A DNA stretch of 64,000 nucleotides from an uncultured Candidatus Saccharibacteria bacterium (GTDB lineage Bacteria; Patescibacteriota; Saccharimonadia; Saccharimonadales; AWTP1-31), in contig CAZVTA010000001.1 in assembly GCA_964629815.1 (NCBI GenBank), forward strand, positions 10,100-74,099, in the 5' to 3' direction. Each line of letters starts with the position of its first letter. The first letter of the stretch is position 1. Shown piece after piece: positions 5,795-23,913 of this stretch. Both the position numbers and the translations under genes were made by a program. The notes under the pieces are model-generated. The model was given only the letters and a program-made list of their open reading frames with translations, ran no database searches and had not been told where the DNA came from.

Positions 5795-5862
5795 TTTCTG
5801 TTTGAATAAAATTTGTGCACGAAAGTTTTCCCCAGAATTGCTGCGCACAAATCCGTCGTTGA

Positions 5863-5891
5863 TTGATGAACTTAAATGTGTGCAGTATACT
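5863..5891 (+). promoter_or_regulatory. Predicted promoter of ftsZ (TTGATG - 17 nt - TATACT)
   Basis: TTGATG at 5863-5868 and TATACT at 5886-5891, followed by SD GAGGA at 5917-5921 and ATG 5930. Confidence 0.4.
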
Positions 5892-5929
5892 AAACATGTA
5901 ACAAGAAATTAGTTCAGAGGATACATGAC

Positions 5930-7222: not shown

Positions 7223-7310
7223 GCGATATGTTGTGCATTGCACGTACTAAAAAATACAGCAAATATGTGCTTGCGCGTATTCAATAATAGCGTTACCATG
7301 ATAAGCATAT

Positions 7311-7326
7311 ACACTATATATAGTGA
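7311..7326 (+). promoter_or_regulatory. NrdR box (operator) upstream of nrdR-nrdJ
   Basis: ACACTATATATAGTGA contains a perfect 14-bp palindrome CACTATATATAGTG (7312-7325), matching the known 16-bp NrdR-box consensus acaCwAtATaTwGtgt. A weaker 16-mer ACATTGCAAAAAATGT (7331-7346, 5-bp arms) follows. Confidence 0.7.
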
Positions 7327-7362
7327 TAGTACATTGCAAAAAATGTATGTGAGAGGGAAATA

Positions 7363-7833
7363 ATGAAATGTAGTCAGTGTCAGGCGGCAGATACAAAAGT
7401 GATTGAGTCTCGTGATGTAGCAGAGGGTCAGGCTATTCGTCGACGTCGTTGTTGTACTGCATGTGCATTTCGCTTCACAACGTATGAGCGAATAGAACGC
7501 CCCCAGCTAATTGTTATAAAAAATACTGGAGCACGTGAACTATTCAATAGAGACAAGTTGCTGAGTGGATTGTATCGGGCATGCGAAAAAACGCCGGTTA
7601 CGAGCGTTCAGCTCGAAAAACTTGTAGCAGACATCGAACATGAGTTGTATACTTGTGGAGAATCTGAGATATCTTCCAATCGAATTGGACAGATAGTGAT
7701 GGAGAGGCTCGCAAAAGTTAACGAAGTTGCCTATGTACGGTTCGCAAGCGTATATCGTCGCTTCAAAGACATTGCAAGTTTCGAAAAAGAACTCTCTCAG
7801 ATACGCAAAAACCAAACAAAAGACGTCAAATAG
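7363..7833 (+). CDS. nrdR: Transcriptional repressor NrdR
   Basis: N-terminal zinc ribbon CSQC...CCTAC followed by an ATP-cone. SD GAGAGGGA lies upstream. Confidence 0.95.
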   Translation: MKCSQCQAADTKVIESRDVAEGQAIRRRRCCTACAFRFTTYERIERPQLIVIKNTGARELFNRDKLLSGLYRACEKTPVTSVQLEKLVADIEHELYTCGESEISSNRIGQIVMERLAKVNEVAYVRFASVYRRFKDIASFEKELSQIRKNQTKDVK

Positions 7834-7967
7834 CAATAGAGTGTTTGACGGTTCCCCTTTGATTAGGATGGGATTAATGGGGAGCAGCGCAAGGCATTTA
7901 GAGAGCATGTCCTTGTAGAGACTCTAAACAAAAACTATATAAAACTAATACATGTGAGGGTAGAAAA

Positions 7968-10712
7968 ATGGGGCAGACTACGATCCTAGAGCGTAGGAGG
8001 CTGTTTACTCAGCCAAAAACTAAGGGATATGACGCGCTAAATTGGGTAAAGCGCGATTCAATTATTACTAATCCAATGACTGGAAAGGCTGTATTCGAGC
8101 AGCGAGACGTAGAGTTTCCAGAGGGTTGGTCGCTCAATGCAATTAATATTGTTGCCCAAAAATACTTTACCGGTACACCGGGATCTGATGATCGCGAATC
8201 CTCACTTCGTCATCTCATCGATCGTGTTGTAGATACGATAACTAAGCAAGGTCTTCAAGAGAGTTATTTCGAGTCAAAAGAAGAGGCCGAAGACTTTAAA
8301 GAGGAACTAAAGTACGTACTTGCAACGCAACGCGCTGCGTTTAACTCGCCAGTATGGTTTAATATTGGCGCTCCTTCACGTTCTCAACAGGCAAGTGCAT
8401 GTTTTATTCTTGCGGTAGAAGATACTATGCCCTCGATCCTTAATTGGTATAAAGAAGAGGGCATGATCTTTAAGGGTGGCTCTGGAGCGGGGCTCAACTT
8501 GAGTTCAATTCGTTCATCGAAAGAGCGTCTTGGCAAAAGTGCCGGCACAGCATCTGGCCCTCTAAGCTTTATGCGTGGAGCGGATGCATCGGCAGGTGCA
8601 ATCAAGAGTGGAGGAAAAACACGGCGAGCCGCTAAAATGGTTATTTTGAATGCCGATCACCCAGATATCGAAGAATTCATCTGGTGTAAAGCAATCGAAG
8701 AGCGTAAAGCGCGCGTTCTGCAGCAAAACGGTTTTGACATGAACCTTGACGGCAGGGATTCGTTCTCTGTACAGTACCAAAATGCTAATAACTCGGTACG
8801 TGTAACCGATGAATTTATGCAGGCTGTTGCCGACGACAAAGATTGGGACTTGAAGGCTGTTACCAATGGCGATACGGTTAAGACTGTTCGTGCGCGTGAT
8901 TTGTATCGACAAATCGCTGAGGCAGCATGGGAGTGTGCAGATCCCGGTATGCAGTTCGACACAACCATCAACAAGTGGCACACTACGCCAAATGCAGGAC
9001 GTATCAACGGAAGCAACCCGTGTAGTGAGTATATGCATCTGGACAACTCGGCATGTAACCTGGCGTCAATCAATCTACTAAAATATCTTAACGACGATGC
9101 TTCATTCGATGTTGAAGCCTTTAAACACACTGTTGAGTTGATCTTTACGGCTCAAGAGATTCTTGTCGGCTACTCTGAATATCCAACTGAAAATATCACC
9201 AAAAACGCTAAAGCATATCGTGAGCTAGGCATTGGTTATGCAAACCTTGGCGCGTTATTAATGGCGCAAGGCTTGCCATACGATTCTGACGAAGGACGAG
9301 CTCAGGCAGCAGCAATCACGGCTTTAATGACAGGTCATGCATATGCAACGAGCGCAAAGATCGCACACCGCGTTGGTCCATTCGCGGGCTTTCATAAAGA
9401 CCAAGACAATATGATAAAAGTATTGCGTATGCACCGAGAAGCTGTCTCTCAGATAGATGCTAGTTTAGTCTCGGAAGAGTTGCTCAGTGCGGCTGCAGCT
9501 GCCTGGGATGATGCAGTAGAGCTAGGGCAACTTTATGGTGTCCGCAACGCTCAGGCCAGTGTTTTGGCGCCGACAGGAACAATTGGTCTTATGATGGACT
9601 GTGATACTACCGGTATTGAGCCAGACCTCGGTCTTGTTAAAGTTAAGAAGTTGGTCGGTGGTGGTACGATGAGCATTGTGAATCAAACAGTGCCTCGTGC
9701 GCTTAAGGCGCTTGGCTATTCCCAAAGTCAGATTGATGACATTGTTACTCATATCGATGTCGAAAAGAAGATAACTGGCGCACCGCACCTCAAGAAAGAG
9801 CACGAAGCAGTATTTGCGTGTTCTATGGGCGATAACCCAATTCACTATCTTGGACACGTTAAGATGATGTCCGCAGTCCAGCCGTTCATATCGGGGGCTA
9901 TCAGCAAGACTGTTAACATGCCAGAAGACGTAACAGTTGAAGATGTTGAACAGCTACATATGGATGCATGGAGGCTTGGTCTTAAGGCGGTTGCTATCTA
10001 TCGTGACAACTGTAAAGTTGGGCAGCCACTCAGCATGGCTAAGAAGGACGGCGAAGAAGCAAAACAGCAAGTGAGTGATGTTACGGACAAGATTATCTTG
10101 AAGGGTGCTGTGCGCCGTGAACTACCAAAGGTGCGCAACTCTAAGACGTTTTCATTCAAAGTTGCGGATAGTCATGGCTTTATGACGGTCGGTGAGTATG
10201 ACGACGGCAATCCAGGCGAAGTGTTTGTAAACATATCTAAGCAAGGCTCAACTCTGCGTGGTATCATGGATGCTTTTGCTATAAGCATTAGTCATGGTCT
10301 TCAGTTTGGCGTGCCGCTCAAAGACTACGTTAAGTCGTTTATGAGTATGTCGTTTGCGCCAGCAGGCATAACCGATGACCCAGAGATTCGCACGGCATCA
10401 TCTATCATTGACTATATTGCACGCCGTTTGGCGATGACGTATCTAAGCTTTGATGACAGGCTTGAACTCGGTCTTGCGTCAGTCGATGATATGCCCGATA
10501 CCCAGACAAACTTGCTCGATACAGTTGCTCCCGAACCAAAAGTACAGGAAGTAAAAGTCGAGCAAGAACAAAAGGTGGCTCCGGTAGCAACACAACAGAA
10601 GACGGCCGCTGACGATACGGCACCGCTCTGTTACAACTGCGGTAACCAGACACAGCGAGCGGGCAGCTGTTATGTGTGTACTGCATGTGGTAGCACAACT
10701 GGCTGTAGCTAG
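7968..10712 (+). CDS. nrdJ: Class II (adenosylcobalamin-dependent) ribonucleoside-triphosphate/diphosphate reductase
   Basis: 914-aa ORF with an RNR 10-stranded barrel motif series (NPCSEY, ACNLASINL, APTGTIG..GIEP). C-terminal Cys-rich tail CYNCGNQTQRAGSCYVCTACGSTTGCS. No separate beta subunit is adjacent. Confidence 0.92.
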   Translation: MGQTTILERRRLFTQPKTKGYDALNWVKRDSIITNPMTGKAVFEQRDVEFPEGWSLNAINIVAQKYFTGTPGSDDRESSLRHLIDRVVDTITKQGLQESYFESKEEAEDFKEELKYVLATQRAAFNSPVWFNIGAPSRSQQASACFILAVEDTMPSILNWYKEEGMIFKGGSGAGLNLSSIRSSKERLGKSAGTASGPLSFMRGADASAGAIKSGGKTRRAAKMVILNADHPDIEEFIWCKAIEERKARVLQQNGFDMNLDGRDSFSVQYQNANNSVRVTDEFMQAVADDKDWDLKAVTNGDTVKTVRARDLYRQIAEAAWECADPGMQFDTTINKWHTTPNAGRINGSNPCSEYMHLDNSACNLASINLLKYLNDDASFDVEAFKHTVELIFTAQEILVGYSEYPTENITKNAKAYRELGIGYANLGALLMAQGLPYDSDEGRAQAAAITALMTGHAYATSAKIAHRVGPFAGFHKDQDNMIKVLRMHREAVSQIDASLVSEELLSAAAAAWDDAVELGQLYGVRNAQASVLAPTGTIGLMMDCDTTGIEPDLGLVKVKKLVGGGTMSIVNQTVPRALKALGYSQSQIDDIVTHIDVEKKITGAPHLKKEHEAVFACSMGDNPIHYLGHVKMMSAVQPFISGAISKTVNMPEDVTVEDVEQLHMDAWRLGLKAVAIYRDNCKVGQPLSMAKKDGEEAKQQVSDVTDKIILKGAVRRELPKVRNSKTFSFKVADSHGFMTVGEYDDGNPGEVFVNISKQGSTLRGIMDAFAISISHGLQFGVPLKDYVKSFMSMSFAPAGITDDPEIRTASSIIDYIARRLAMTYLSFDDRLELGLASVDDMPDTQTNLLDTVAPEPKVQEVKVEQEQKVAPVATQQKTAADDTAPLCYNCGNQTQRAGSCYVCTACGSTTGCS

Positions 10713-10735
10713 GTAAGGACGCAAAAAGCAGTAAA

Positions 10736-10770
10736 CAGGGCGGGGCTATATGTCTCGCCCTGAGGCGTTT
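10736..10770 (+). terminator. Possible weak terminator after nrdJ
   Basis: Hairpin CAGGGCG(10736-10742)/CGCCCTG(10756-10762) with a 13-nt loop. The short TTTT (10767-10770) comes after a 4-nt gap, so this is not canonical. Confidence 0.3.
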
Positions 10771-10790
10771 TAGCTGATACACTAGATTGC

Positions 10791-11057
10791 ATGAAAGTGA
10801 TTATGCTGTATCGCCCAAATTCTGAGCATGCGCGAAGCGCAGAAGCCTTTGTACGCGATTTTCAACACCAAACCGATAAACGTATCGAACTGGTCAATAT
10901 AGATTCACGAGAAGGCGTACAAATGGCTGATTTGTATGGAATTGTGCAACACCCAGCGATTATTGCGGTTGATAACGATGGCCATATGCAGCAAATGTGG
11001 CAGGGTGCGGTGTTGCCACTCATGAATGAGGTTGCGTATTATGCGGTAGAGCCTTGA
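10791..11057 (+). CDS. Thioredoxin/glutaredoxin-fold-like small protein lacking any cysteine
   Basis: 88-aa ORF. Its beta-alpha-beta pattern (VIMLYRPNSEHARSAEAFV...) and the ...YGIVQHPAIIAVDNDG... segment (cis-Pro-like) resemble a Trx fold, but the CxxC position reads RPNSEH and the protein has no Cys. Confidence 0.45.
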   Translation: MKVIMLYRPNSEHARSAEAFVRDFQHQTDKRIELVNIDSREGVQMADLYGIVQHPAIIAVDNDGHMQQMWQGAVLPLMNEVAYYAVEP

Positions 11058-11095
11058 GCTAATCACTCAGAAAGTGTATAATTTACAGCAGAAAT

Positions 11096-11290
11096 GCGTC
11101 TAGGTAAAACTAGTAAGTGGCTATCAACCACAAAAGCAGTCGGAAGAACGGCGACAAACGCCTAGTAGAACCGAACGGGCAGCCCGTAACAGCAATAAGT
11201 AAGCGCTAAAAGAGTCGTCTCTTTTGGAAGCCAGATGGTACCGTCCGGTCATTCGGATTCTGGCAGCCAAAAGCGGCGATTTTTGTTTTA
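11096..11290 (+). promoter_or_regulatory. T-box riboswitch leader of ileS (putative Ile specifier)
   Basis: T-box sequence AGAUGGUACCGUCC at 11233-11246. Antiterminator-like fold has outer helix GCCAGA(11230-35)/UCUGGC(11259-64), a 7-nt bulge UGGUACC (11236-42) and inner helix GUCCGG/UCGGAU with loop UCAU. Stem III-like hairpin at 11206-11227. Hairpin GUGG-CUAUCAA-CCAC (11117-11131) presents AUC (Ile) followed by A. U-run at 11280-11289 precedes SD GGAG 11293-96. Confidence 0.65.
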
Positions 11291-11301
11291 ATGGAGATAG
11301 T

Positions 11302-14142
11302 ATGAAATTTAAATCAGGCACACGAAGACGAGCGCTCAAATACGAAAAAGATCTTGTTCGACAATGGAAACAGAACAAGACGTTTGAAAAATCTATCGAG
11401 AATCGATCAAAAGAAAATAGCTATGTATTTTATGACGGGCCTCCGTTTATTAGTGGGGTACCACACCATGGCACGCTGCTGAGCTCAATCGTAAAGGACG
11501 CGGTTCCGCGCTACCAAACCATGAAAGGTAAGCGGGTTGAGCGCGTCTGGGGATGGGACTGCCATGGTTTGCCGGCAGAACGCTACACAGAAAAAAAACT
11601 TGGCATTCATTCTCGACAGGAAGTTATCGAGTACGGAATCGAAAAATACATCACCGCTACACGTGAAAACATGATCCAAACCAGTAGCGAATGGGAAGAT
11701 GTAGTGGACCGCATCGGCCGTTGGGTCGACTTTACGGGTGCCTATAAAACCATGGATAAAGATTACATGGAGAGCGTTTGGTGGGCGTTTAAAGAGCTGT
11801 ACGACAAGGGCAAGATTTATGAAGGCGAAAAGGTGCTCATGTACTGTACGCTCGACGGAACGCCGCTTTCCAAGGCGGAAGTTACCATGGATGCCGGTGC
11901 CTACCAAGATGTAACCGACCCAAGTGTATTTGTTAAATTTAGGCTCAAAAACGAAGATGCATATCTATTGGCTTGGACAACAACACCATGGACTTTACCG
12001 GCAAACACTGCATTAGCAGTTAATCAAAAGTTCACATATGTAGAAGTTGAGCATGGGGGCGAAAAACTCATCATCTCAGAAGCATTGGTCGATAAAGTTC
12101 TAACCGATGAAAAACATCAGCAATTAGACTATAGAATTATACGCAAGTTAACAGGTAAGGATCTGGTTGGAAAAGAGTATGAGCCGCTTTTTGTGCATCG
12201 CGGCGAGGGTGCCCACAAGATTTGGCATGCTGATTATGTGAGCGACGAAGATGGATCTGGCATTGTTCACTTGGCGCCGGCATATGGTGAAGAAGACTTT
12301 GCCTTGGCGCAAGAAAAAAATATCCCAGTTGTTCACGTTATTGACCAGAATGGTTTCTATACCGAGGGCGACTGGAAGGGGCAGAATGTATGGGAGGCTA
12401 ATAAGCCAATAGCCAAAGAGCTAAAAGAGCGCGGCATAGTCTGGAAAATTGACTACATTCGCCATAGCTACCCGCATTGTCATCGTTGTAATACGCGACT
12501 GATGTATCGGGCGCACCCCAGCTGGTTCATGGACATAGATGGTCAACGCCAGCAAATGCTGGAGAAGAACCAGCCAATCAACTGGTTTCCGCCGCACGTA
12601 AAGAATGGTCGATTTGCAAAAACGGTCGAGCAAGCGCCAGACTGGAATATTTCAAGAGATCGCTTCTGGGCGACTGCTATGCCTGTTTGGAAGAGTAAGA
12701 ATGGTAATACCAAGGTGGTGGGTAGTTATGAAGAGCTAAAGCAGTTAAGTGGCGTAGAGCTTAACGATTACCATCGTCCGTGGATTGACGACGTAAAGTT
12801 TACGATTGATGGCGAAGAATATACGCGCATCGATAAAGTAATGGATAGCTGGTTCGAAGCAGGTAGTATGCCGTTTGCTCAATTCCATTACCCATTCGAG
12901 AACAAACAGAAGTTCGAAGAGAATTTCCCCGGTGACTTTATTGTCGAATATATTGGCCAGGTGAGGGCTTGGTTTTACTATATGCACGCCATGAGTGTTG
13001 CGCTGTTCGGCGAGAATTCATTCAAAAACGTCATTGTAACTGGTAACGTTGCCGGAAACGATGGGCGTAAAATGAGTAAAAGCTACGGTAACTATACCGA
13101 CCCCAACGAACTGATGGACCAATATTCGGCAGATTCTCTGCGCTTTTTGCTATTACAGAGTCCACTGCTGAATGGAGAGGATTTTGCGCTACAAGATAAA
13201 GAAGTTGGTGACGTTGCCAGAAAGCTTAGTATGGTCTGGAATATGTACGATTTCTTTACGATGTATGCAGAGGTTGATGGCTGGGAGTGGAATGGTGATC
13301 ATAGTGATCCTGCTGATTCGACTAACAATATGCTCGATACTTGGATAATCAGCCGTGTACATCAACTGACAGAAGAAGTTGAGCGGCATATGGATGCATA
13401 CGATATTCCTAACGCCTTAAAGCCTATTCTGCCGTTTATTGACGATGCATCCAACTGGTATGTTCGACGTAGTCGACGGCGTTTTTGGAAGAGCGGAGAC
13501 GATGCCGATAAGAATAGTGCATATCGAACACTGCATTATGTGCTTGTGCAGCTCAGTATGGTAATGGCGCCATTCACACCATTTCTAGCAGAAGAGCTGT
13601 ATCAAAAGCTCACCGGAGGTGAATCGGTTCATCTGCAAGATTGGCCAAAAACAGGAACAATCAACGAACAGCTTGTTACTGAGATGCAACAGGTGCGCGA
13701 ATACATTACCGAAGGGTTAGCGCAACGGGCAAAAGCAGCAATTAAAGTGCGTCAGCCGCTCAAATCGGTCACAGTGCCGCAACTGCCAGACGTATATAAA
13801 GAAGTTATTGCCGAAGAGCTGAACGTAAAAAGTGTGAACTGGGGTAAGGATGTTGAGTTAGACACTCAAATAACCACAGAGCTTAAGCACGAGGGCATGG
13901 CACGAGAGGTGATTCGTTTTGTTCAAAACGCCAGAAAGAATACAGGCTTGCAAGTAGACGATAGGATTCTGTTGCGGCTCGCAACCGTAGATCAAGATCT
14001 CCAGGAGGCTATCGAGGCTTTTGGCGACAATATTGCTGCCGAAACGCTGGCAAAAGAAGTAGCGGTTAAAGAAAGTCTTGATGAAGCCGAGGAGGCAAAG
14101 ATAGATGGCGCACCGCTTTCGATAAAAATTTCAAAGATCTAG
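11302..14142 (+). CDS. ileS: Isoleucyl-tRNA synthetase (type 2, eukaryote-like C-terminus)
   Basis: HIGH-type motif PHHGTL, KMSKS present (GRKMSKS), CP1 editing domain. ATG 11302 is preceded by GGAG. The 5' extension in the ORF track (11224) lies inside the T-box leader. Confidence 0.95.
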   Translation: MKFKSGTRRRALKYEKDLVRQWKQNKTFEKSIENRSKENSYVFYDGPPFISGVPHHGTLLSSIVKDAVPRYQTMKGKRVERVWGWDCHGLPAERYTEKKLGIHSRQEVIEYGIEKYITATRENMIQTSSEWEDVVDRIGRWVDFTGAYKTMDKDYMESVWWAFKELYDKGKIYEGEKVLMYCTLDGTPLSKAEVTMDAGAYQDVTDPSVFVKFRLKNEDAYLLAWTTTPWTLPANTALAVNQKFTYVEVEHGGEKLIISEALVDKVLTDEKHQQLDYRIIRKLTGKDLVGKEYEPLFVHRGEGAHKIWHADYVSDEDGSGIVHLAPAYGEEDFALAQEKNIPVVHVIDQNGFYTEGDWKGQNVWEANKPIAKELKERGIVWKIDYIRHSYPHCHRCNTRLMYRAHPSWFMDIDGQRQQMLEKNQPINWFPPHVKNGRFAKTVEQAPDWNISRDRFWATAMPVWKSKNGNTKVVGSYEELKQLSGVELNDYHRPWIDDVKFTIDGEEYTRIDKVMDSWFEAGSMPFAQFHYPFENKQKFEENFPGDFIVEYIGQVRAWFYYMHAMSVALFGENSFKNVIVTGNVAGNDGRKMSKSYGNYTDPNELMDQYSADSLRFLLLQSPLLNGEDFALQDKEVGDVARKLSMVWNMYDFFTMYAEVDGWEWNGDHSDPADSTNNMLDTWIISRVHQLTEEVERHMDAYDIPNALKPILPFIDDASNWYVRRSRRRFWKSGDDADKNSAYRTLHYVLVQLSMVMAPFTPFLAEELYQKLTGGESVHLQDWPKTGTINEQLVTEMQQVREYITEGLAQRAKAAIKVRQPLKSVTVPQLPDVYKEVIAEELNVKSVNWGKDVELDTQITTELKHEGMAREVIRFVQNARKNTGLQVDDRILLRLATVDQDLQEAIEAFGDNIAAETLAKEVAVKESLDEAEEAKIDGAPLSIKISKI

Positions 14143-14208
14143 GACTCTTTACACGAAAGGCCATATCTGTTACTATTTATTGGTAATTTTTAGATATTAA
14201 GGAAACAC

Positions 14209-14517
14209 ATGAAGAAAGCAGTCATTGCAACTGGCGGAAAACAATATGTTGTAACCGAAGGCGAAACGCTCGAGGTTGAGTTGCTGCAAGGCGACAAAAA
14301 GACTGTTGCGTTTGAGCCGCTACTCGTTATTGACGGTAAAGACATCAAAGTCGGTGCGCCTAAGGTTTCTGGTGTTACAGTAACCGCAAAGATAGCTGAA
14401 GAGCCAGTCCGCGCGGATAAGGTTACGGCTATTCGCTATAAAGCAAAGAAACGCGTGCGAAAAGTGCGTGGACATCGGCAGTCTCTAAGTCGGATCACTA
14501 TTGAAAAAATAGCGTAA
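14209..14517 (+). CDS. rplU: 50S ribosomal protein L21
   Basis: 102-aa ORF. MKKAVIATGGKQYVVTEGETLEVE...RKVRGHRQ is typical of bL21. SD AAGGA lies upstream. Confidence 0.95.
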   Translation: MKKAVIATGGKQYVVTEGETLEVELLQGDKKTVAFEPLLVIDGKDIKVGAPKVSGVTVTAKIAEEPVRADKVTAIRYKAKKRVRKVRGHRQSLSRITIEKIA

Positions 14518-14546
14518 TTCTTGGCACTTTTGCCTGTGTATAAAAA

Positions 14547-14570
14547 ACGACCCAGTCTGGGTCGTTTTTT
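14547..14570 (+). terminator. Rho-independent terminator after rplU
   Basis: ACGACCC(14547-53)/GGGTCGT(14559-65) hairpin preceded by AAAAA and followed by TTTTTT. Confidence 0.8.
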
Positions 14571-14591
14571 ATGGTATTGTTGAGTCAATTT

Positions 14592-14600
14592 TGCTACAAT
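14592..14600 (+). promoter_or_regulatory. Extended -10 promoter element (TGcTACAAT) upstream of the giant surface-protein gene
   Basis: TG at 14592-93 and TACAAT at 14595-14600. About 33-nt leader with SD GAGGG before GTG 14640. Confidence 0.35.
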
Positions 14601-14639
14601 AGTGCTTAAGTTTTACAGGGGAAAATACTGAGGGTACTT

Positions 14640-17600
14640 GTGGAAATAGGCCAAAAAAAGCATAAACGCGTTACTCGTGCTGTCAAACATGGAGTTGGCA
14701 AGGTGTATCCTCATGCGAAGAAAACAGTGCGTGTTGTATATAAGGGCGCGCGTGCCGGAACTAAAATTACCGTTCACTCGGCTAAAAGGGCTCGCTACCA
14801 TCTTGCGACCCGACCGCATGTGTATATGCAAGATAACTGGGCATGGTACGGAAAATGGCACTCTTGGCGCTGGCACAAGTTAGTTCATTTTAGTACGCTT
14901 GCACTCTATCTGGCCGTTATAACCGCGATGGTACTAAACGCTTCAAATCTTCCAAGTTCGGCCTTGAGCACGTGGTCGCAAACTAACTGGAGTGGCGGAA
15001 GTGGCACTAATACTTCTACGCAGTATGAGAGTCTTTCTAATATAGACGCCACAATTGCTAACCAGCTGACGCTGAGTAAAAGTAGCAACAGCTTCTCTAA
15101 TTCGACATTCGACAGTAACTTAACGGGCTGGAATGGGTATGGCAAGAGTTATGACACAACACAGAGCTATTCAGCGAGTGGCTCAGCTAAGATTATTGCA
15201 GGCGGAGTTTCTTCGGCTACCTTCTACAATCAAATAACAACAACTGGAGTTTCAAATCAAAACCAAATAGCTAGTGGAGATATTAATGGGGATGGCCTTG
15301 ATGATATTGCAATTTCAACATATGTAGCAGTTACAGGTACAGAAATACGTTGGTATCCTTCTAACGGAAATGGAACGTATGGCTCCGCCAATATTATTAA
15401 TACGCCCACCGGTGGAGCGTATAGTTTAGTTATCGGCGACTTTACCGGTGACGGCTGGAATGATCTTGTAGCTACGCAATCCTATGCGAGTGGCACAAAT
15501 AAACTGGCTTACTTTACCAATAATGGGTCTGGCTCATTATCTTCTCCTACTGAGGTTACTATTACCGGCGCCCCTACCGGTGGCACAAGAACGTGTTATA
15601 TAAAAAAGGGCTATATCGATAGTAATGCTTCACTTGATATGGTTGTAACATGTAACTCAGCTAACTTATTTATTTTTAATAATAACGGTTCTGGAACTTT
15701 CACGCAGAATAATTACGCAATGGGGTTTACATCAGGCAGCACGCCACCCCAACTAGCTATAGTAGATATCAATAATGATAGCCGGCCAGAGCTGGTATAC
15801 AACAACACAAATACCAATAGCTGCCTATTTTACGTCATGCCGAATAATGGGAGTACTTTTGATTCGCCGGTTAGCTACACCCTAAACCAGTGCGGAACAG
15901 GTTCTGTTGTAAAATATGCACTAGCTGGTGGGGACATAAATGGCGATGGCTATGGGGATGTTGCTATTGGTCGACGTACAGGCACGGGCGGTACAGCCAC
16001 CTCCGATACGTATTACCTAACTACACTACTGGGTACGTCTTCGACTACTTTGACCACACAAACTGATTATGCCGGTGCGACCGGCAGTGATGATGCGACA
16101 TCCGAAATAGTAATAACTGATGTTACAGGCGACGGATATGGCGACATCATGCAGGAGCTTCCCAGTAACAGTGTTATGGGTTACTACAAAAATAACGGCA
16201 ATGGGACACTAGCGGCAAAAGTCGATTACTCCACAGGGTCTGGTCCTAGCGGCATTGCAGCTACTGACTTCAATGGTGATGGTTACCTAGATTTCTCTGT
16301 TGTAAACAGTACGGGTGGAACAATCTCTACCTTTATTAATCGCACTCCAGGAGACGCGATTACTCAAACAGTGAACGTTGGAGATATAAGTACCTATCAG
16401 CTCGAAGTCTATGCGTATACCAGTGGAGCGGCAGTAACTAGTGCCGATGCAGTGTTGTGGTACAACGGTGCAGCAGTAAGTACGACCTTTACTGCAAGCG
16501 CAACGCCTGGTTGGTATAAGCTCACCGGAACATTAACTGGTGCCAACGCTAAGCGGAGTATTGGCGTGTTGGTAAAACAGGGTAAAACGGTTTATATTGA
16601 CAGCTTCACAGTGTATAAATATTCTTCTTCTGGGTATGTGAATTCGGCCATATTTGATCCCGGCTATGGTGGAGATTGGGGGAATTTAGCATATACTACT
16701 ACCAATAGTTCGGGGGTAACTGTAAAAGTAAGAACTTCAAATAGCTCTAGTATGTCGGGTGCTACGGCGTTTGGTTCTTGTAGCGCAATAACATCGGGTA
16801 GCGATATTTCAAGCAATGGCTGTGTTACCGATGGCGACAGATATATTCAGTATCAGGTAACGCTCACGCCAGTATCCGGAGATACGCCAGTATTTAGTTC
16901 ATTCTCTTTAGACTATGCTGCGTATGATGTATTGGCGCCGGACACAAATGCCTCAAGTATTATCATGAAGAAAGCGGCAGGTGGTGATGATGTTGCGTTA
17001 AATGATTGGACGAATGGTGCGAGTCCATATTTTAGCTGGACGGCTGGTGCAGATAATGCCGGTGGAGCGGGTTTGCTGGGGTATTGTGTGTACTTGGGTA
17101 CCGATAATACTGCCGACCCAGTTACAACTAAAGGACTACTTGGAACAACGCCAGTAAGTAATGCAGCCTGTCCGTTTATTGTTAATGACACTGAGCTTGA
17201 CCTTGGCACGGCTGGTTTGCTGGGCACGGCGCTTACAACATCCAATAGCGCCTATTACATCAGTATAAAAGCAGTTGATGTTGTTGGTAATGTGTATACG
17301 GGGTCGTCCGAGCAGTTCCATTTTCGCTTTGATAACACGGTGCCAAGTAATCCGGCCTATCTATCGGCGCCATCGCAGTTTTTGAACACAAAAACTGCGA
17401 CAGTAACATGGCCTGCAAGTGGCGATGGTGTAGCAGCGGACGCTAATTCTGGCCTGGCGGGTTTACAATATAAGATTAATTCTTCCGTATGGTATGGCGA
17501 CGACCATACAGGCGATGGCGATATAAATGACTTATTAGCCAATGACGGCGCGTATACTACTATTGACCCCACTGATTTCGATAACATCAACGACGGCGTC

Positions 17601-19505
17601 AATACTATCTATGTACGCACATGGGATAACGCGGGCAATGTAACTACGAGTTATGTTACCGCTGCCTTAAAAGTAAATACCAATGGTTCACCATCAGAAC
17701 CCCAGAATGTTACCGCTACGCCCACTACTAATGTGACTAATAGCTTTGCGTTTAGTTGGACTACTCCGGCAACCTATGTTGGGCAGGCAAGTGGCTTAAC
17801 GTACTGCTATACCATAAACGTGGTGCCCTCATCAGGCAACTGTTCCTTTACGGCTGCTGGTGTAACGAGTCTTGACGCTGGCGCTTATGCAACCCAGCCG
17901 GGAACAAACACGTTTTATGTTGTCGCGAAGGACGAGTCAAGCAACATTAATTATTCTAGCTATGCGAGTACGACCTTTACGGCAAATACGCCGGCGCCAG
18001 GCTTGCCGGTTAATGTTGACGTAGTAGATGTATCCCTGAAAGCAACGAGCAATTGGCGCCTTGCTCTTACGTGGGACGAGCCGGATGACACAGGTGCGGG
18101 TATCGCGAGCTATAAGATTTTTCGTAGCACTGATAATAATTCATTCTCTCAAGTAGGCTCAAGTAGTAGTACCTCGTATGTGGATAGCGGATTGTCACAG
18201 CAAGAGTACTTCTACCGTATTAAGGCTTGTGACAGCGCAAACCAGTGCAGCGCGGTCAGTTCTACGGTAAACGAGACCCCTACCGGAAAGTTTACCGCTC
18301 CTGCCAATATGACAAGCGAACCGGAGGTGAGTGATATTACGACGAAACGAGCCACGATTAGCTGGAGCACCGACAGAACATCCGATAGTAAAATACAAAT
18401 AGGTACGGCTAGTGGCGAGTATAGTCCGTCGGAAGTTGGTAACTCTGAACAGGTTACGGCTCATGACATAGAGCTAGATAATCTTGCCGCAGGCACAACT
18501 TACTATTTCAAGGCGTTATGGACTGACGAAGATGGGAATACGGGCATGAGTCAGGAATACTCGTTTACGACAGCACCTGCCCCCCTACTCAAAGAGGTTA
18601 ATACGCTTTTAGTAGGGCTAAGCACGGCAACGATACAATTTACTGTTAGGGATGCAACCAAGGTCTCGATTAGGTATGGAAAATCAGATGCTTTCGGGGG
18701 TATTAAGTCTCTGAATACATCTATGAATGAGTCAACCTACGAGGTTGAGCTGGGAGGATTAGACGATGGGGCGAAGTATCTATACCAGCTAACAATGACT
18801 GATAGCGAAGGTGGTGAGTATGACAGTAGTATCTTCTCGCTTACTACACCTCCTAGACCAAAGATTAGTAATCTACGCTTCCAGCCGGTTGCTGGAGAGC
18901 CAACAAGTACTCAGCAAATAACTTGGACAACCAATATAGCGACTTCTTCGATTGTTGCTTATGGCAAAACAGGTTCTAGTGGTACGATCATACAGACTAA
19001 CGAATTGAAGACTGCTCACGAGGTAGTGATTCGTGGCTTGGAAGACGACAGTGAATATTTCTTAATTGCGCAAGGAAGGGACTCTAACGGTAACCTGGCA
19101 ACTTCTGATAAGCAAGTTTTCAAGACGGCGCTCGATACACGGCCGCCATCAGTAAGCGACATTGTGATCGAGCCCAGCATCCGTGGTACCGGAACAGAGG
19201 CAAGAGGGCAGATTATTGTTTCGTGGAAGACCGACGAGCCGTCTACCAGTCAGGTTGCGTATGCAGAAGGCTCTGCTGCTACGGTATTCAATAATAAGAC
19301 CGCAGAAGATGCACAGCTAACAACTGAACATCTAGTGATCATATCAGATCTGCCACCAAGCCGGGTGTTTACAATATTGCCTATTTCTAAAGACAAATCC
19401 GGAAATGCGTCTTCTTCTACAGGACAAGCTGCGATAATTGGTAGGGCATCAGACAGTGTACTCAATATAGTTCTCAACACGCTTAGAAAGGTATTTGGTC
19501 TCTAG
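14640..19505 (+). CDS. Giant (1621 aa) N-terminally membrane-anchored surface protein with an FG-GAP/VCBS beta-propeller, a CBM-like jelly roll and multiple Ig/Fn3-like domains
   Basis: GTG start with SD. Basic K/R/H-rich N-terminus of about 80 aa, then one TM helix (LVHFSTLALYLAVITAMVLNA). Seven DxNxDGxxD-type repeats, then Ig-like and Fn3-like modules. High Thr/Ser/Asn/Gly content and no LPXTG. Confidence 0.85.
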   Translation: MEIGQKKHKRVTRAVKHGVGKVYPHAKKTVRVVYKGARAGTKITVHSAKRARYHLATRPHVYMQDNWAWYGKWHSWRWHKLVHFSTLALYLAVITAMVLNASNLPSSALSTWSQTNWSGGSGTNTSTQYESLSNIDATIANQLTLSKSSNSFSNSTFDSNLTGWNGYGKSYDTTQSYSASGSAKIIAGGVSSATFYNQITTTGVSNQNQIASGDINGDGLDDIAISTYVAVTGTEIRWYPSNGNGTYGSANIINTPTGGAYSLVIGDFTGDGWNDLVATQSYASGTNKLAYFTNNGSGSLSSPTEVTITGAPTGGTRTCYIKKGYIDSNASLDMVVTCNSANLFIFNNNGSGTFTQNNYAMGFTSGSTPPQLAIVDINNDSRPELVYNNTNTNSCLFYVMPNNGSTFDSPVSYTLNQCGTGSVVKYALAGGDINGDGYGDVAIGRRTGTGGTATSDTYYLTTLLGTSSTTLTTQTDYAGATGSDDATSEIVITDVTGDGYGDIMQELPSNSVMGYYKNNGNGTLAAKVDYSTGSGPSGIAATDFNGDGYLDFSVVNSTGGTISTFINRTPGDAITQTVNVGDISTYQLEVYAYTSGAAVTSADAVLWYNGAAVSTTFTASATPGWYKLTGTLTGANAKRSIGVLVKQGKTVYIDSFTVYKYSSSGYVNSAIFDPGYGGDWGNLAYTTTNSSGVTVKVRTSNSSSMSGATAFGSCSAITSGSDISSNGCVTDGDRYIQYQVTLTPVSGDTPVFSSFSLDYAAYDVLAPDTNASSIIMKKAAGGDDVALNDWTNGASPYFSWTAGADNAGGAGLLGYCVYLGTDNTADPVTTKGLLGTTPVSNAACPFIVNDTELDLGTAGLLGTALTTSNSAYYISIKAVDVVGNVYTGSSEQFHFRFDNTVPSNPAYLSAPSQFLNTKTATVTWPASGDGVAADANSGLAGLQYKINSSVWYGDDHTGDGDINDLLANDGAYTTIDPTDFDNINDGVNTIYVRTWDNAGNVTTSYVTAALKVNTNGSPSEPQNVTATPTTNVTNSFAFSWTTPATYVGQASGLTYCYTINVVPSSGNCSFTAAGVTSLDAGAYATQPGTNTFYVVAKDESSNINYSSYASTTFTANTPAPGLPVNVDVVDVSLKATSNWRLALTWDEPDDTGAGIASYKIFRSTDNNSFSQVGSSSSTSYVDSGLSQQEYFYRIKACDSANQCSAVSSTVNETPTGKFTAPANMTSEPEVSDITTKRATISWSTDRTSDSKIQIGTASGEYSPSEVGNSEQVTAHDIELDNLAAGTTYYFKALWTDEDGNTGMSQEYSFTTAPAPLLKEVNTLLVGLSTATIQFTVRDATKVSIRYGKSDAFGGIKSLNTSMNESTYEVELGGLDDGAKYLYQLTMTDSEGGEYDSSIFSLTTPPRPKISNLRFQPVAGEPTSTQQITWTTNIATSSIVAYGKTGSSGTIIQTNELKTAHEVVIRGLEDDSEYFLIAQGRDSNGNLATSDKQVFKTALDTRPPSVSDIVIEPSIRGTGTEARGQIIVSWKTDEPSTSQVAYAEGSAATVFNNKTAEDAQLTTEHLVIISDLPPSRVFTILPISKDKSGNASSSTGQAAIIGRASDSVLNIVLNTLRKVFGL
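15276..16298 (+). repeat. Seven FG-GAP/VCBS-like calcium-binding repeats (protein-level repeat, probable 7-bladed propeller)
   Basis: GDINGDGLDDIA, GDFTGDGWNDLV, GYIDSNASLDMV, VDINNDSRPELV, GDINGDGYGDVA, TDVTGDGYGDIM and TDFNGDGYLDFS, spaced about 50-60 aa apart. Confidence 0.7.
18291..19440 (+). repeat. Four tandem Fn3-like modules of about 95 aa each (purple-acid-phosphatase-N-like) at the C-terminus of the giant protein
   Basis: Recurrent pattern (A/I)T(I/V)xW(S/T)T(D/N)...S.(V/I)xYG...T.H.(V/I).(L/I)..L...T.Y.(F/Y), each module ending in a T(A/P)P-type linker. Confidence 0.6.
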
Positions 19506-19507: not shown

Positions 19508-20281
19508 ATGGATGCTCAAAAAACACTCATTTCGGTGAATGACCTTATACAAAAGTTTACCGTTGGTGATGAATTGATAGAGATTTTACACAAGAGTAGC
19601 TTTAGTCTCAAGGAAAATACATTCAATATTATCTATGGGCCATCAGGATCTGGTAAATCTACTATGCTTAATGTTTTGAGCGGTATTCAGGCGCCTACAG
19701 AAGGCAGCGTGCAATACGAGGGTCAAGATATATATAAGTACAGCCCAGAGCAACTAGCATATTTTCGTGCAAAATACATTGGTGTGGTATATCAACAAAA
19801 TTACTGGGTGAATAGTATGAATGTTATTGAGAACGTATCTGTGCCGTTGTATTTCTTGGGTTATACTCGCGCGGCCGCTTCTAAGGTGGCTATGGATGCT
19901 TTGCAACGAGTAGATATGGCGACTTTTGCAAAGAAAAGTCCTCTTATGCTGTCTGGTGGTGAACAACAGCGTATTGCCATGGCTCGGGCGATTGTTAATG
20001 ATCCTAAAGTCATTATCGCCGATGAGCCAACGGGCAACTTAGACTCAAAAAACGGCGATATGATTATGGCTTTACTCCGTAGTTACAATAAGGACCTTAA
20101 CCGTACAATCATCCTTGTTACCCATAACATGGAGTATCTACCACTCGCTGATCAATTAATCCGGGTTCAAGATGGTGAGTGTCAGCCAATGGAAAGTCAC
20201 GATATCGACAAAATTACCAATGTGCTCATGCAGGAAGTAAGAGATAGAATAGAAAGATTAGCAAAGGCAAAAAATGGATAG
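19508..20281 (+). CDS. ABC transporter ATP-binding protein (MacB/LolD/FtsE-like family)
   Basis: Walker A GPSGSGKST, signature LSGGEQQRIAMARA, Walker [12 protein letters not shown]. Starts 2 nt after the giant gene's stop. Confidence 0.92.
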   Translation: MDAQKTLISVNDLIQKFTVGDELIEILHKSSFSLKENTFNIIYGPSGSGKSTMLNVLSGIQAPTEGSVQYEGQDIYKYSPEQLAYFRAKYIGVVYQQNYWVNSMNVIENVSVPLYFLGYTRAAASKVAMDALQRVDMATFAKKSPLMLSGGEQQRIAMARAIVNDPKVIIADEPTGNLDSKNGDMIMALLRSYNKDLNRTIILVTHNMEYLPLADQLIRVQDGECQPMESHDIDKITNVLMQEVRDRIERLAKAKNG

Positions 20282-21543: not shown

Positions 21544-22305
21544 ATGAGCAAGATAGTATCTATTCTTAATCAGAAGGGTGGCGTAGGGAAGACAACAACA
21601 GCTATAAATCTAGGTGCATACCTTGCAAAAAGAGGTAAGAGCGTACTGATTGTTGACCTTGACCCCCAAGGTAACGCCACAAGCGGACTAGGGATAGACA
21701 AACATTCCCTAGAGGCGAGCATGTATGATGTGCTGTTTGGTGCGGTCCCTGCAGAAAAGATAATTGTTGAAACAGCGCAGTCTGGACTTTTTATAGCACC
21801 GACTAACGAACAGCTAGCAGCAGCAGAAGTTGATCTTGCTTCAGAGCAAATGAGAGAGGGCAAGCTTCGCCAGGCTTTAGAACATTTGGTTTTTGATATT
21901 ATTTTAATCGACTGTCCGCCTGCTTTAAGTCTGCTTACGATTAATGCATTGACAGCAGCTGACTATGTTCTTATTCCTGTGCAAGCCGAGTATTACGCCC
22001 TTGAGGGTCTAAGTCAGCTCCTGGGAGTGGTGCAAAGGATTAGGGGCGGTCTTAATCCGCGACTAGAGCTTCTTGGTGTAGTGGTTACGATGCACGATAG
22101 TCGCACATCACTCTCTGATCAGGTTGTTTCGGAACTGAAGAAGCATTTTGGAGATAAGTTGCTGCAAACAATCATCCCCCGTAATGTGCGGCTTGCTGAG
22201 GCGCCAAGCTACGGAAAATCTATAGCGGAGCACGATAAATGGTCTAAGGGGGCAAGAAGCTATAAGCAACTGGCGAAGGAGGTAGATGCTCGTGTCGGTC
22301 ACTAA
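21544..22305 (+). CDS. parA: Chromosome partitioning ATPase ParA/Soj
   Basis: Deviant Walker A NQKGGVGKTTTA, DLDPQGNAT and IDCPP motifs. Confidence 0.95.
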   Translation: MSKIVSILNQKGGVGKTTTAINLGAYLAKRGKSVLIVDLDPQGNATSGLGIDKHSLEASMYDVLFGAVPAEKIIVETAQSGLFIAPTNEQLAAAEVDLASEQMREGKLRQALEHLVFDIILIDCPPALSLLTINALTAADYVLIPVQAEYYALEGLSQLLGVVQRIRGGLNPRLELLGVVVTMHDSRTSLSDQVVSELKKHFGDKLLQTIIPRNVRLAEAPSYGKSIAEHDKWSKGARSYKQLAKEVDARVGH

Positions 22306-23164
22306 AGCAAAGGGTCTCGGGCGTGGTTTTGATGCGCTCATTCCACAGAATTTTGATAGTTCGCTTATTCAAGAACAAGGCGAGCGCGTTGAGCAATTAC
22401 CCGTACGCAATCTCGTAGCAAATCCTGAGCAGCCACGTAAACAGTTTGATCAGTCCGAGCTTGAGGGTCTCGCACAATCTATAGCCGAACACGGAGTGAT
22501 ACAGCCTCTTGTTGTTACGTCCGACGGAACTGGTAAGTATTATGTTATTGCGGGTGAACGACGGTGGCGAGCATCGCTATTGGCGGGCATTGAAACCGTA
22601 CCTGCGGTTGTACGAACAATAAAGCAGTTACAGCGTCTCGAGCTGGCCATTGTAGAGAATGTGCAACGTGTTGATCTTTCTCCGCTTGAGCAAGCAGCGT
22701 CTATTGTTCAGCTTCATGAACAATTTAGTCAAGACATGGCAACTATTGCAAAGCGGCTCGGCAAGGCGCCGAGTACGGTTCAGAATATTGTTCGACTACT
22801 GCAGCTACCAGATCAAGCAAAACAGGCTTTAGCGCAGGGTAATATATCTGAAGGACATGCCCGTGCAATTTTGGCACTCAAAGAAGAAAACGATCGGCTC
22901 AAGATGTTGGAGCTGATAATTTCAAACGGTTGGTCTGTGCGCCAAGCAGAACGTTATGCGAGTGCACAAAAAGCTGGCATAAAACAGGTGGCGGCTGCTA
23001 AGAAGCGGGTCGAGACATCGAATAAACATACAGAGCGCTTGTCGCAAGTTATTAAAGCGCCAGTTAGTCTGCGACGTACTGCCAAGGGTGGAAAGATAGA
23101 GATATCGTTCAAGACCGATGCCGAATTCAAGAGAATTATTGCGATACTATCGAAACAAAAATAA
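22286..23164 (+). CDS. parB: Chromosome partitioning protein ParB/Spo0J
   Basis: GLGRGFDALI N-terminus, ParB box GERRWRA, HTH region. Overlaps the parA end. Confidence 0.95.
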   Translation: MLVSVTKAKGLGRGFDALIPQNFDSSLIQEQGERVEQLPVRNLVANPEQPRKQFDQSELEGLAQSIAEHGVIQPLVVTSDGTGKYYVIAGERRWRASLLAGIETVPAVVRTIKQLQRLELAIVENVQRVDLSPLEQAASIVQLHEQFSQDMATIAKRLGKAPSTVQNIVRLLQLPDQAKQALAQGNISEGHARAILALKEENDRLKMLELIISNGWSVRQAERYASAQKAGIKQVAAAKKRVETSNKHTERLSQVIKAPVSLRRTAKGGKIEISFKTDAEFKRIIAILSKQK

Positions 23165-23178: not shown

Positions 23179-23913
23179 CTAAAAGGTTTTGCCTTTACCA
23201 AAGGGATATACGCGCAAGATTAGTTTTCCAGTGAGGTCATTAGCATCTATGGGGCCAAACGCTCTAGAATCAAGCGAGTTTGTCCTGTTGTCTCCGCAGA
23301 CGAAAACCTGGCCTTCCGGCACAATTAGCTCCACATCACCAGGTGTTGTTTTGATGACTTTGCCATAGTCGGCATCATCAGGCTTAAACCCGTTTGGATT
23401 TGACTGGTTATATACGGTTAATACATTATTCTTAACGACAACGCGTTCGCCTGGCAGTGCAACGACACGCTTAATGAGTTGACGAGAAGTATTTCCTCCG
23501 AATGCAAAGCTTTCTTCGCGCTTAAATACTACGATATCCCCTCTGTTTGGAATGTATGGCTTTCTCGTGATGCGCGCAATGGTTTTTGGCAACTTGTAGA
23601 CAATAAGTCGGTCATGGTTTTGTAAGGTAGTTTCCATGCTTGGTCCGTCAACCTCGTATGACTGAAAAACAAACGCAGTCAAGGAAAGCGCGATGAGTGG
23701 AGCGATAATTAGTATTGCAATAGTAGACAGGATGCCTCGAATACCTTCGCCGCGATTATCCTGGGCTTCGTCTGTTGCGTCTGCTTGTGAATCGTTACTT
23801 ACTGTTTGATGACTAGGAGTAGAATCTTGGTTGGTTTGAATAGGAGACGAAGGACTGACTGAAGGAGTATCTTTTTGGTCATCGGGTGTTGGTGTTTCGC
23901 TGTTCATATGCAC
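23179..23913 (-). CDS. lepB: Signal peptidase I
   Basis: Catalytic Ser box GPSMETTL, RGDIVVF, KRVVALPGE and GDNRTNSLDSR. N-terminal low-complexity region plus a TM helix. Confidence 0.93.
   Translation of the reverse strand: MHMNSETPTPDDQKDTPSVSPSSPIQTNQDSTPSHQTVSNDSQADATDEAQDNRGEGIRGILSTIAILIIAPLIALSLTAFVFQSYEVDGPSMETTLQNHDRLIVYKLPKTIARITRKPYIPNRGDIVVFKREESFAFGGNTSRQLIKRVVALPGERVVVKNNVLTVYNQSNPNGFKPDDADYGKVIKTTPGDVELIVPEGQVFVCGDNRTNSLDSRAFGPIDANDLTGKLILRVYPFGKGKTF

Follow-up and report, generated by a model that had tools for sequence, protein, structure and literature searches.

Apart from type IV pili, little has been learned about the means by which ultra-small epibionts recognize their hosts and stay attached to them. 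The locus described here offers a concrete, testable three-gene module and raises a narrower question: how is a giant surface protein kept on such a cell, and does the ATP-binding cassette (ABC) system encoded beside it have a part in this? The locus lies in a 64,000-nucleotide stretch of DNA from an uncultured Candidatus Saccharibacteria bacterium (assembly GCA_964629815.1, contig CAZVTA010000001.1, positions 10,100 to 74,099; hereafter the window, in whose numbering coordinates are given) and consists of a gene for a protein of 1621 amino acids (aa), followed by genes for an ABC ATPase and an ABC permease. The giant protein has a basic N-terminal region (n-region), a β-propeller head, a stalk of immunoglobulin-like and fibronectin type III-like (Ig/Fn3) modules and a short C-terminal tail. 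It is likely a surface recognition protein, and its predicted domains make a role as an adhesin or receptor-binding protein plausible. Host attachment, likewise plausible, is the standard hypothesis for such bacteria; the partnership between the giant protein and the ABC pair is the new, testable part of our finding. In full-text literature searches, whose coverage left out most subscription-journal papers, neither the tail nor the mature N-terminal motif nor a giant-gene/MacB-type cassette was described. We give even odds to the reading in which the giant protein is a modular surface fibril that is exported by Sec, retained by its C-terminus and served by a dedicated type VII ABC complex, with the propeller as a tip for lectin-like recognition.

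The conserved tail and the adjacent ABC pair

The features that carry the argument are as follows:

14640–19505 (+): giant surface protein gene, 1621 aa (open reading frame list, Pfam, identical public protein)
19431–19502 (+): conserved tail AIIGRASDSVLNIVLNTLRKVFGL, aa 1598–1621; 84% identity; predicted amphipathic helix at aa 1603–1619
19508–20281 (+): ABC ATPase resembling LolD, FtsE and the nucleotide-binding domain of MacB, 257 aa; PF00005, 1.7e-30; starts 2 nt after the giant stop codon
20274–21491 (+): type VII ABC permease with MacB_PCD and a four-transmembrane (4-TM) FtsX domain; PF12704, 1e-17, and PF02687, 1.5e-19; overlaps the ATPase gene by 8 nt

The most conserved part of the giant protein was its C-terminal amphipathic helix, SDSVLNIVLNTLRKVFGL-COOH. 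Among nine propeller-bearing orthologues, for which we computed identities by region, values were 33% in the n-region, 39% in the propeller, 62–76% in the stalk modules and 84% over the last 24 residues. Every copy compared ended in ...AIIGRASDSVLNIVLNTLRKVFG[LFYI], and this type of tail was invariant over 15 loci. AlphaFold modeled a terminal α-helix of 17 residues (aa 1603–1619; predicted local distance difference test, pLDDT, ∼60), with a hydrophobic moment of 0.46 and a mean hydrophobicity of 0.20. As predicted, this helix is too polar and too short to be a transmembrane anchor. With regard to sortase anchoring, no LPx[TSA]G motif occurred anywhere in the giant protein, and the tail had no terminal basic cluster. 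An earlier note on this DNA had claimed that both LPXTG and a C-terminal anchor were absent; the whole-protein motif check agrees with the former, but the latter appears wrong given the strongly conserved amphipathic tail (84% identity). Neither Pfam nor NCBIfam had a model covering the tail.

We therefore describe the tail through a family motif that is defined here and not curated: a last Fn3-type module of the form D[TS]xxP...SW.T[DN]EP...H...KPG.VY...D..GN, followed by a C-terminal helix of the form h-h-x-h-h-x-x-x-[LF]-x-x-x-F-G-[WFL] within ∼15 residues of the end. It was present in the identical public copy of the window protein and its close relatives (P0001–P0008) as well as in nine distant proteins. 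The distant giant proteins (1760–2740 aa) share the last Fn3-type module and a homologous tail, ..LTP+xxxS(I/V)hxhIhxN[FL]xxxFG[WF].. A profile of module plus tail (alignment A3), searched against 1.84 billion representative proteins, gave 20,585 matches at E ≤ 0.001, many of which share the Fn3-type module only; the tail stood at the end of 81 of the 149 best matches, which were 780–6321 aa long. Overall, the helix is shared by hundreds of giant Patescibacteria proteins with heads unrelated to one another. In a word-indexed search with the tail profile, the matches with a named source all came from Patescibacteria (Saccharibacteria, Berkelbacteria, Moranbacteria and "Patescibacteria group"); this search returned short fragments, usable for taxon names and not for architectures. 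Many top profile matches without the tail (P0216, P0219, P0222, P0240, P0241, P0248, P0265 and P0266) ended instead in ...SGVY.Y......F..T+K..LL+, indicating that the same Fn3-type repeat occurs with a different conserved C-terminus, which may resemble the type IX secretion (T9SS)-type sorting domains of Bacteroidota-like organisms.

Judged by its predicted domains, the ABC pair belongs to the type VII systems. Among solved structures, the permease came closest to YtrF of Bacillus subtilis (9o9x, 1.9e-25), MacB (5lil), Spr0695 of Streptococcus pneumoniae (5xu1) and LolF/LolE. Given that scores for the NCBIfam equivalogs fell far below their cut-offs, the pair is not LolCDE, FtsEX or MacB proper: the ATPase scored 196 for LolD (6e-58; cut-off 308) and 181 for FtsE (2.5e-53; cut-off 265), and the pair reached 47 for LolCE (cut-off 362) and 89–158 for MacB (cut-off 966). 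An HlyD-type membrane-fusion protein (MFP) adaptor, expected for a MacAB-type pump, was found neither in the giant protein nor among the neighboring genes.

The linkage of giant gene and ABC pair was consistent across Saccharimonadales, in which the pair lay directly downstream in all 15 evaluable cassettes (13 complete and two truncated at contig ends), while the outer flanking genes differed completely between loci. Across these cassettes, the identity of the ABC proteins tracked that of the stalk. The spacing in the window, 2 nt and then an overlap of 8 nt, is tight enough for translational coupling. Among distant tail-bearing homologues, the pair followed the giant gene in four of six (P0009, P0068, P0018 and P0101, not P0055 or P0043), and in a distant metagenome subgroup, found with a subgroup profile (A4) and counted only at loci with at least 3 kb of downstream sequence, it did so at 9 of 34 loci. 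Southlakia carries a few MacB-type pairs per ∼900-gene genome, and chance adjacency is estimated at well under 1% of loci; the giant gene and the ABC pair thus occur together far more often than chance would allow. By analogy, the pattern resembles that of sorting systems, in which one substrate gene may sit beside the machinery and others are scattered.

Several cassettes varied in composition. Loci L004 (1085–7477 and 7977–16342) and L005 (196–6537 and 6599–14737) each held two tandem cassettes, with a giant of 1452 or 1388 aa bearing a DUF2341-type short head and then one of 2120 or 2049 aa bearing a LamG-type head; every giant gene had its own ATPase and permease, and the paralogous ABC pairs were only ∼40–47% identical. 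In the distant cassettes at L017 (11769–13049), L019 (12149–13516) and L020 (11520–12836), the ATPase had 426–455 aa, compared with 257 aa here, and its additional ∼200-residue C-terminal extension had no Pfam match. Locus L016 (15022–16986) encoded a 654-aa permease with an enlarged extracytoplasmic region. At L018, two tail-bearing giants of >3016 and 2739 aa stood in tandem (1–14220 and 14223–19146), followed by a 143-aa gene, a DUF87/TrwB-like ATPase (820 aa) and a 676-aa protein, with no ABC pair. We had also considered L003 a rearranged cassette with an upstream ABC pair and rejected this, as that pair is only 29–39% identical to the one in the window and represents a distant paralogue; the locus was left out of the cassette count because only 90 nt of contig follow the giant gene.

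Head, stalk and N-terminus of the giant protein

Ahead of the tail, the giant protein divides into the following regions:

14640–14879 (+): basic n-region, aa 1–80; 28 K/R/H and 2 D/E; mean identity only 33%
14880–14969 (+): h-region (aa 81–99) and c-region NASNLPSSALS, together aa 81–110; predicted signal peptidase I site S110/T111
14970–15224 (+): predicted mature N-terminus TWSQTNWSGG..., aa 111–195; 62% identity among orthologues; pLDDT below 35
15225–16349 (+): seven-bladed FG-GAP (integrin-α-type) β-propeller, aa ∼196–570; Pfam, AlphaFold and Foldseek; 39% identity
16350–16934 (+): two β-sandwich modules, aa 571–765; strand-rich AlphaFold model, pLDDT 40–70
16935–18299 (+): four Ig/Fn3-like modules, aa 766–1220; β-sandwich beads, pLDDT 80–90 from aa ∼1019; Foldseek matches to Fn3 arrays
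18300–19430 (+): four Pur_ac_phosph_N-type Fn3 modules, aa 1221–1597; PF16656; pLDDT 80–93

The earlier note had read an integrin-α-like, seven-bladed propeller from the sequence, and Pfam, AlphaFold and Foldseek all agreed. Against the whole protein, Pfam matched FG-GAP (PF01839; E 3.5e-24, 84.6 bits, cut-off 22.1) and FG-GAP_3 (PF13517; E 7e-24, 84.6 bits, cut-off 26.9) in seven stretches, and the isolated propeller segment scored 110 and 89 bits, respectively. Strict DxNxDGxxD loops, of which the note had counted seven, numbered six (aa 214, 267, 376, 432, 494 and 543), the remaining blade at ∼326 being degenerate; the loops have the form of putative Ca2+-binding motifs. In an AlphaFold model of aa 96–860, the propeller was confident (pLDDT ∼80 over aa ∼195–565), and Foldseek matched it to integrin αV (6.7e-11), ITFG2 (TMt 0.65) and the lectins PVL and AAL2 (TMt 0.52–0.55), with further matches to CRTAC1 and UmbA4. 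We also tried the idea of a propeller inserted into a split β-sandwich and rejected it: concatenated halves compared with propeller-less family members by BLAST aligned over the C-terminal half only, and the model did not demonstrate it either, the N-terminal half having a confidence below 35.

Eight full-length orthologues had identities of 53–71%, and the related genome loci, 11 in all, came from metagenome-assembled genomes of Saccharibacteria/Saccharimonadales. The gene was intact in these orthologues and at many genome loci, which speaks against pseudogenization in close relatives. Other Saccharimonadales relatives keep aa ∼1–100 and ∼680/760–1621 at 60–69% identity, while the head is replaced by an unrelated one of 300–1100 aa with Laminin_G_3 or DUF2341; heads of distant members are of the RCC1, Kelch-like, NHL or LamG type. 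The hypervariability among orthologues that the earlier note had proposed looking for was thus found in the propeller, the fastest-evolving part of the protein (39%), which relatives swap for other lectin-type modules. A fast-evolving, swappable head fits a role in ligand or host recognition.

The stalk comprises about 10 β-sandwich modules, in line with the about nine Ig/Fn3 modules claimed before, and domain searches supported the Fn3-type assignments as they did the propeller. Of the two modules at aa 571–765, for which Pfam had no match, the second (VKVRTS...YIQYQV...) is common to distant family members, with 56% identity to P0018 over aa 696–762 (BLAST). An AlphaFold model of aa 850–1621 showed a string of β-sandwiches (pLDDT 80–93 from ∼1019) that Foldseek matched to Fn3 arrays. 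Within it, the one classical Fn3 module of the note has the expected fold, but at aa ∼1131–1200 its score in a segment scan (PF00041; E 4.7e-5, 23.9 bits) lies just under the Pfam cut-off of 25. The tandem modules resembling the N-domain of purple acid phosphatases were confirmed as Pur_ac_phosph_N (PF16656; E 7.7e-15, 55.7 bits, cut-off 30) in three to four copies, the fourth weak, and the last of them (from DTRPP) is the tail-proximal domain found family-wide in alignment A3 with distant homologues. Only two modules begin with D(N/V)xxP, which the note had given as the start of several. CBM_4_9 (PF02018), which it had suggested checking in Pfam and which we considered for aa ∼135–195 and 571–660, was rejected: Pfam gave no match on aa 551–770 or on the concatenated flanking half-segments, even at E ≤ 10. 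An enzymatic role was likewise discarded, as purple acid phosphatases share with the giant protein only their Fn3-like N-domain (Pur_ac_phosph_N), and no catalytic domain occurred among its Pfam matches. The protein has a T/S/G/N-rich composition, as claimed earlier, and the 12 cysteines form six close pairs, consistent with an extracytoplasmic location.

The N-terminus bears directly on which end of the protein is held at the cell. As the earlier note had described, residues 1–80 are strongly basic, and the only hydrophobic segment of the protein follows at about residues 81–100 (Kyte–Doolittle peak). The note had taken this segment as a transmembrane helix that anchors the protein. The single segment stands; the anchor is probably wrong, as a conserved peptidase-type site follows. 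The sequence features of a signal peptidase I substrate are all present, namely a positive n-region, unusually long at ∼80 aa, an h-region and small residues at −3/−1. In 20 of 20 homologues, the −1 residue was small and −3 was A, V or T, with P or another helix breaker near −6. In all Saccharimonadales homologues, a hydrophobic stretch and a short c-region ending in A-L-S, A-L-A or similar lead directly into TWxQTNWxGG. The distant homologues P0018, P0045, P0068, P0101, P0037 and P0012 have ordinary short signal peptides before the same mature motif, xWxQxxWxGG, ending in AxA (P0018, ...FTARA|ATYTWVQEDWSGG; P0068, ...RAEA|ASYTWTQSNWSGG), and [WFY]xQxxWxxG also occurs in distant family members with unrelated heads. 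Given the −3/−1 pattern in all 20 sequences and the ordinary signal peptides of distant homologues at the same position, we predict cleavage at S110/T111; a cleavable Sec signal peptide with a long basic n-region seems more likely than an anchor. The predicted mature N-terminus (aa 111–195) had no confident AlphaFold fold (pLDDT <35) despite its 62% conservation.

A signal-anchored (type II) protein is the rival that survives best, though we consider it unlikely. Its hydrophobic segment would stay uncleaved, the basic 80 residues would be cytoplasmic and could contact the ABC ATPase, and the propeller would be membrane-proximal with the Fn3 array distal, unless both ends were at the membrane. 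The single hydrophobic segment with its strongly positive N-side suits such a topology. So does a W/H/R-rich juxtamembrane motif, RPH..(8-14)..WY..WH.W.WHK (14811–14879, aa ∼58–80), which keeps the form RPHvY..W.WY.kWH.WrWHK across Saccharimonadales homologues, is absent from distant family members and would be unexpected in a peptide destined for degradation; this conserved motif keeps the uncleaved anchor alive as a reading. The n-region extension had no match in NCBIfam or Pfam, and overall it is the least conserved region (33%). Further arguments against the anchor are the conserved −3/−1 site and the helix breaker at −6 exactly before the mature motif, the short, cleavable-type signal peptides of distant homologues at the same position, and the resulting geometry, since a variable head beside the membrane under a conserved distal stalk would be unusual for an adhesin.

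The reading frame (14640–19505, plus strand) is intact, starts with GTG and is the longest of the window, as the earlier note had stated, and a search of public protein collections with the window protein found an identical copy (P0001). The GTG start is credible, given a GAGGG Shine–Dalgarno-like site (14630–14634, plus strand) 5 nt upstream and orthologue N-termini that align with the window protein from residue ∼1–9 on. Upstream lies rplU, encoding ribosomal protein L21 (PF00829, Ribosomal_L21p), and the giant gene follows its terminator as had been claimed. The promoter ascribed to the giant gene fared less well: the extended −10-like sequence exists, but it is a consensus match only, with no accompanying −35, and our promoter scan of the region did not list it. 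The two upstream signals are:

14539–14573 (+): intrinsic terminator of rplU, a 16-pair stem and then a T-run; the strongest terminator-like site in the region
14592–14600 (+): extended −10-like TGcTACAAT; consensus match only, no convincing −35

The rest of the window is housekeeping (isoleucyl-tRNA synthetase, class II ribonucleotide reductase, SecA, PriA, CTP synthase and ParAB). Directly downstream of the cassette are parA–parB, then signal peptidase I (Peptidase_S26) and an HtrA-like Trypsin/PDZ protease (21544–23164, 23179–23907 on the minus strand, and 24760–25935); annotation of the genes 3′ of the cassette was taken from L001, a locus whose sequence does not differ from that part of the window. 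Over positions 1–64000, GC skew was positive in every 2-kb bin with a monotonic rise in cumulative skew, and nearly all large reading frames were on the plus strand, which places the whole window on the leading strand of a single replichore. Elsewhere, a 496-aa CHAP plus FG-GAP_3 protein, reminiscent of Southlakia SEML1_0891, was encoded 3.7 kb upstream of the cassette in one relative (L014, 2814–4304), and a 946-kb contig carried a heliorhodopsin gene (PF18761; L017, 4074–4835) that precedes its distant giant-gene/ABC cassette by ∼1.2 kb.

Proposed mechanism and what weighs against it

In the mechanism that we propose for the C-terminally held fibril, signal peptidase I would remove the hydrophobic N-terminal segment by cutting after S110. 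The conserved C-terminal end of the giant protein, made up of the last Fn3-type module and the amphipathic helix, would then keep it on the cell. This end could lie at the outer face of the membrane, dock on the permease (at its extracytoplasmic domain or in its transmembrane groove), or both. Retention by the C-terminus would make the variable propeller the distal tip, where it may act in lectin-like recognition of a surface glycan or glycopolymer, most plausibly on the cell wall of the host bacterium. Powered by ATP, the ABC complex would exert a mechanical action on the tail and thereby retain and actuate the fibril, or else extract and release it from the membrane. We propose action on the tail because the characterized type VII systems (FtsEX, LolCDE, MacAB and YbbAP) work on a dedicated extracytoplasmic partner. 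Every characterized type VII system is reported to have such a partner, as in FtsEX-EnvC, LolCDE-LolA, MacAB-TolC and YbbAP-TesA (PMC12646458).

More tentatively, the tail might be a sorting or anchoring signal used across Patescibacteria and read by a dedicated MacB/FtsX-class ABC system, whose cytoplasmic ATP hydrolysis, passed on by the permease, would hold, actuate (extend or retract) or release giant lectin-tipped fibrils. If this were true, it would describe a new mode of adhesin deployment in monoderm-type ultra-small epibionts, and type VII ABC systems would gain a fifth functional class.

Several points weigh against the C-terminally held fibril and its ABC partner. The proposed link between tail and permease is drawn from genomic linkage, and the tail helix was modeled at a pLDDT of only ∼60. 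Two of the six distant homologues (P0055 and P0043) had no ABC pair downstream, and the other 25 of the 34 loci in the distant subgroup had no ABC gene within 5 kb downstream; outside Saccharimonadales, the link between tail and ABC pair is not obligate in cis. In Southlakia epibionticum, the MacB-like pair SEML1_0053/0054 has no adjacent giant gene. Cleavage of the signal peptide is predicted from sequence rules only, and the ∼80-residue n-region with its conserved motif is atypical and may be a retained cytoplasmic domain.

Some of these points would also fit an ABC pair that serves efflux or resistance, as a MacB, YknYZ or Bce-like transporter, and whose only tie to the giant gene is the shared operon, with a C-terminal helix that only caps the last domain. 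Annotations commonly describe MacB-class pumps as exporters of drugs or peptides, adjacency is absent from most loci of one distant subgroup, and Southlakia has such a pair alone. We nevertheless regard an unrelated transporter as improbable. Adjacency persists in very divergent lineages (25–30% identity in shared domains) while other neighbors change, cassettes were duplicated together with each copy having its own ABC pair, and the genes are close enough to be translationally coupled. In addition, a membrane-fusion (HlyD) partner was missing from the giant protein and its surroundings, and chance would place such a pair beside the giant gene in well under 1% of loci.

Similarly improbable is an envelope scaffold or surface layer (S-layer)-like coat, not an adhesin, with head variability that would serve escape from phages or predators and an ABC pair that would help in coat assembly or turnover: the large, repetitive, T/S/G/N-rich β-sandwich protein, the single-copy or duplicated cassette conserved in many genomes and the head hypervariability, typical also of phage-receptor evasion, would suit it, but the Pfam and NCBIfam matches included neither SLH nor any other domain known to anchor S-layers or drive their self-assembly, and the folds of the heads (FG-GAP, LamG, Kelch, NHL and RCC1) are of the ligand-binding, lectin type.

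If the partnership of tail and ABC pair is real, it adds a new class of partner for type VII ABC systems. The tail would then be a sequence signature with which to catalogue candidate host-interaction proteins in Patescibacteria metagenomes, and the head-swap variants would be natural experiments on host specificity. If it is not, the gene is one more of the already recognized giant putative adhesins.

Comparison with known systems

Earlier work had proposed that Patescibacteria attach by means of large surface proteins with Fn3, integrin-type and lectin-type domains (PMC13059738, PMC11809585, PMC10633639). Like the window protein, the "adhesins" of Absconditicoccaceae, Patescibacterium danicum and Southlakia epibionticum are very large, bear a signal peptide or TM segment, combine Fn3, FG-GAP (VCBS) and lectin-type domains, and occur in reduced-genome epibionts, for which a role in host contact was proposed. 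These reports give domain content only and do not note the tail, the mature N-terminal motif or linkage to a MacB/FtsX-type pair. We considered whether the window protein is equivalent to the essential Southlakia VCBS/Fn3 proteins SEML1_0890/0891 and rejected this, as those are different, much smaller and have no MacB pair beside them; SEML1_0891, an essential VCBS protein of 565 aa, joins a lysozyme-like domain to a seven-bladed propeller, unlike the 1621-aa giant. The Southlakia MacB-like pair SEML1_0053/0054 stands alone, and its disruption causes a growth defect.

The giant adhesins of the RTX/type I secretion system (T1SS) group (LapA, MpIBP-type), which are of the megadalton class, likewise consist of modular β-sandwich extenders and ligand-binding modules with an ABC system in the locus, and in both them and the window protein the terminal regions decide, or here would decide, retention or release. 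RTX adhesins are exported C-terminus first by an HlyB-type ABC protein, an MFP and TolC, and have RTX repeats and no Sec signal. By contrast, the window protein has a Sec-type N-terminal signal and a MacB/FtsX-class ABC pair in a monoderm-type cell, and Pfam found no RTX or HemolysinCabind match in it. Extended signal peptides are known from other very large proteins, namely ESPR in autotransporters and two-partner secretion (TPS) proteins and KxYKxGKxW and YSIRK in Gram-positive bacteria, each a conserved extension before a normal h- and c-region. The extension in the window protein differs from these in its length of ∼80 residues and its unrelated W/H/R-rich motif.

The type VII mechanotransmission systems (FtsEX-EnvC/PcsB/RipC, LolCDE-LolA, MacAB-TolC, YbbAP-TesA and YtrEF) share with the window pair a separate ATPase and a 4-TM permease of the FtsX fold with a MacB-type periplasmic core, and likewise an exported partner whose gene is in the same operon. 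The partner here would be a 170-kDa Ig/Fn3 fibril with a lectin-type head, which sets it apart from hydrolase activators, chaperones, membrane-fusion proteins and esterases.

As for the head, the same seven-bladed FG-GAP fold with DxNxDGxxD loops occurs in Psathyrella velutina lectin (PVL), AAL2 of Agrocybe, UmbA4 of the Streptomyces umbrella toxin particles and the integrin α head (Foldseek 1e-9 to 7e-11), with sequence identities to the window propeller of only 10–18%. The known FG-GAP lectins, PVL and AAL2, are fungal and bind GlcNAc-type glycans, and the UmbA4 entry 9oee is titled as bound to TUA of S. griseus, an abbreviation that we read as teichuronic acid from the actinobacterial cell wall.

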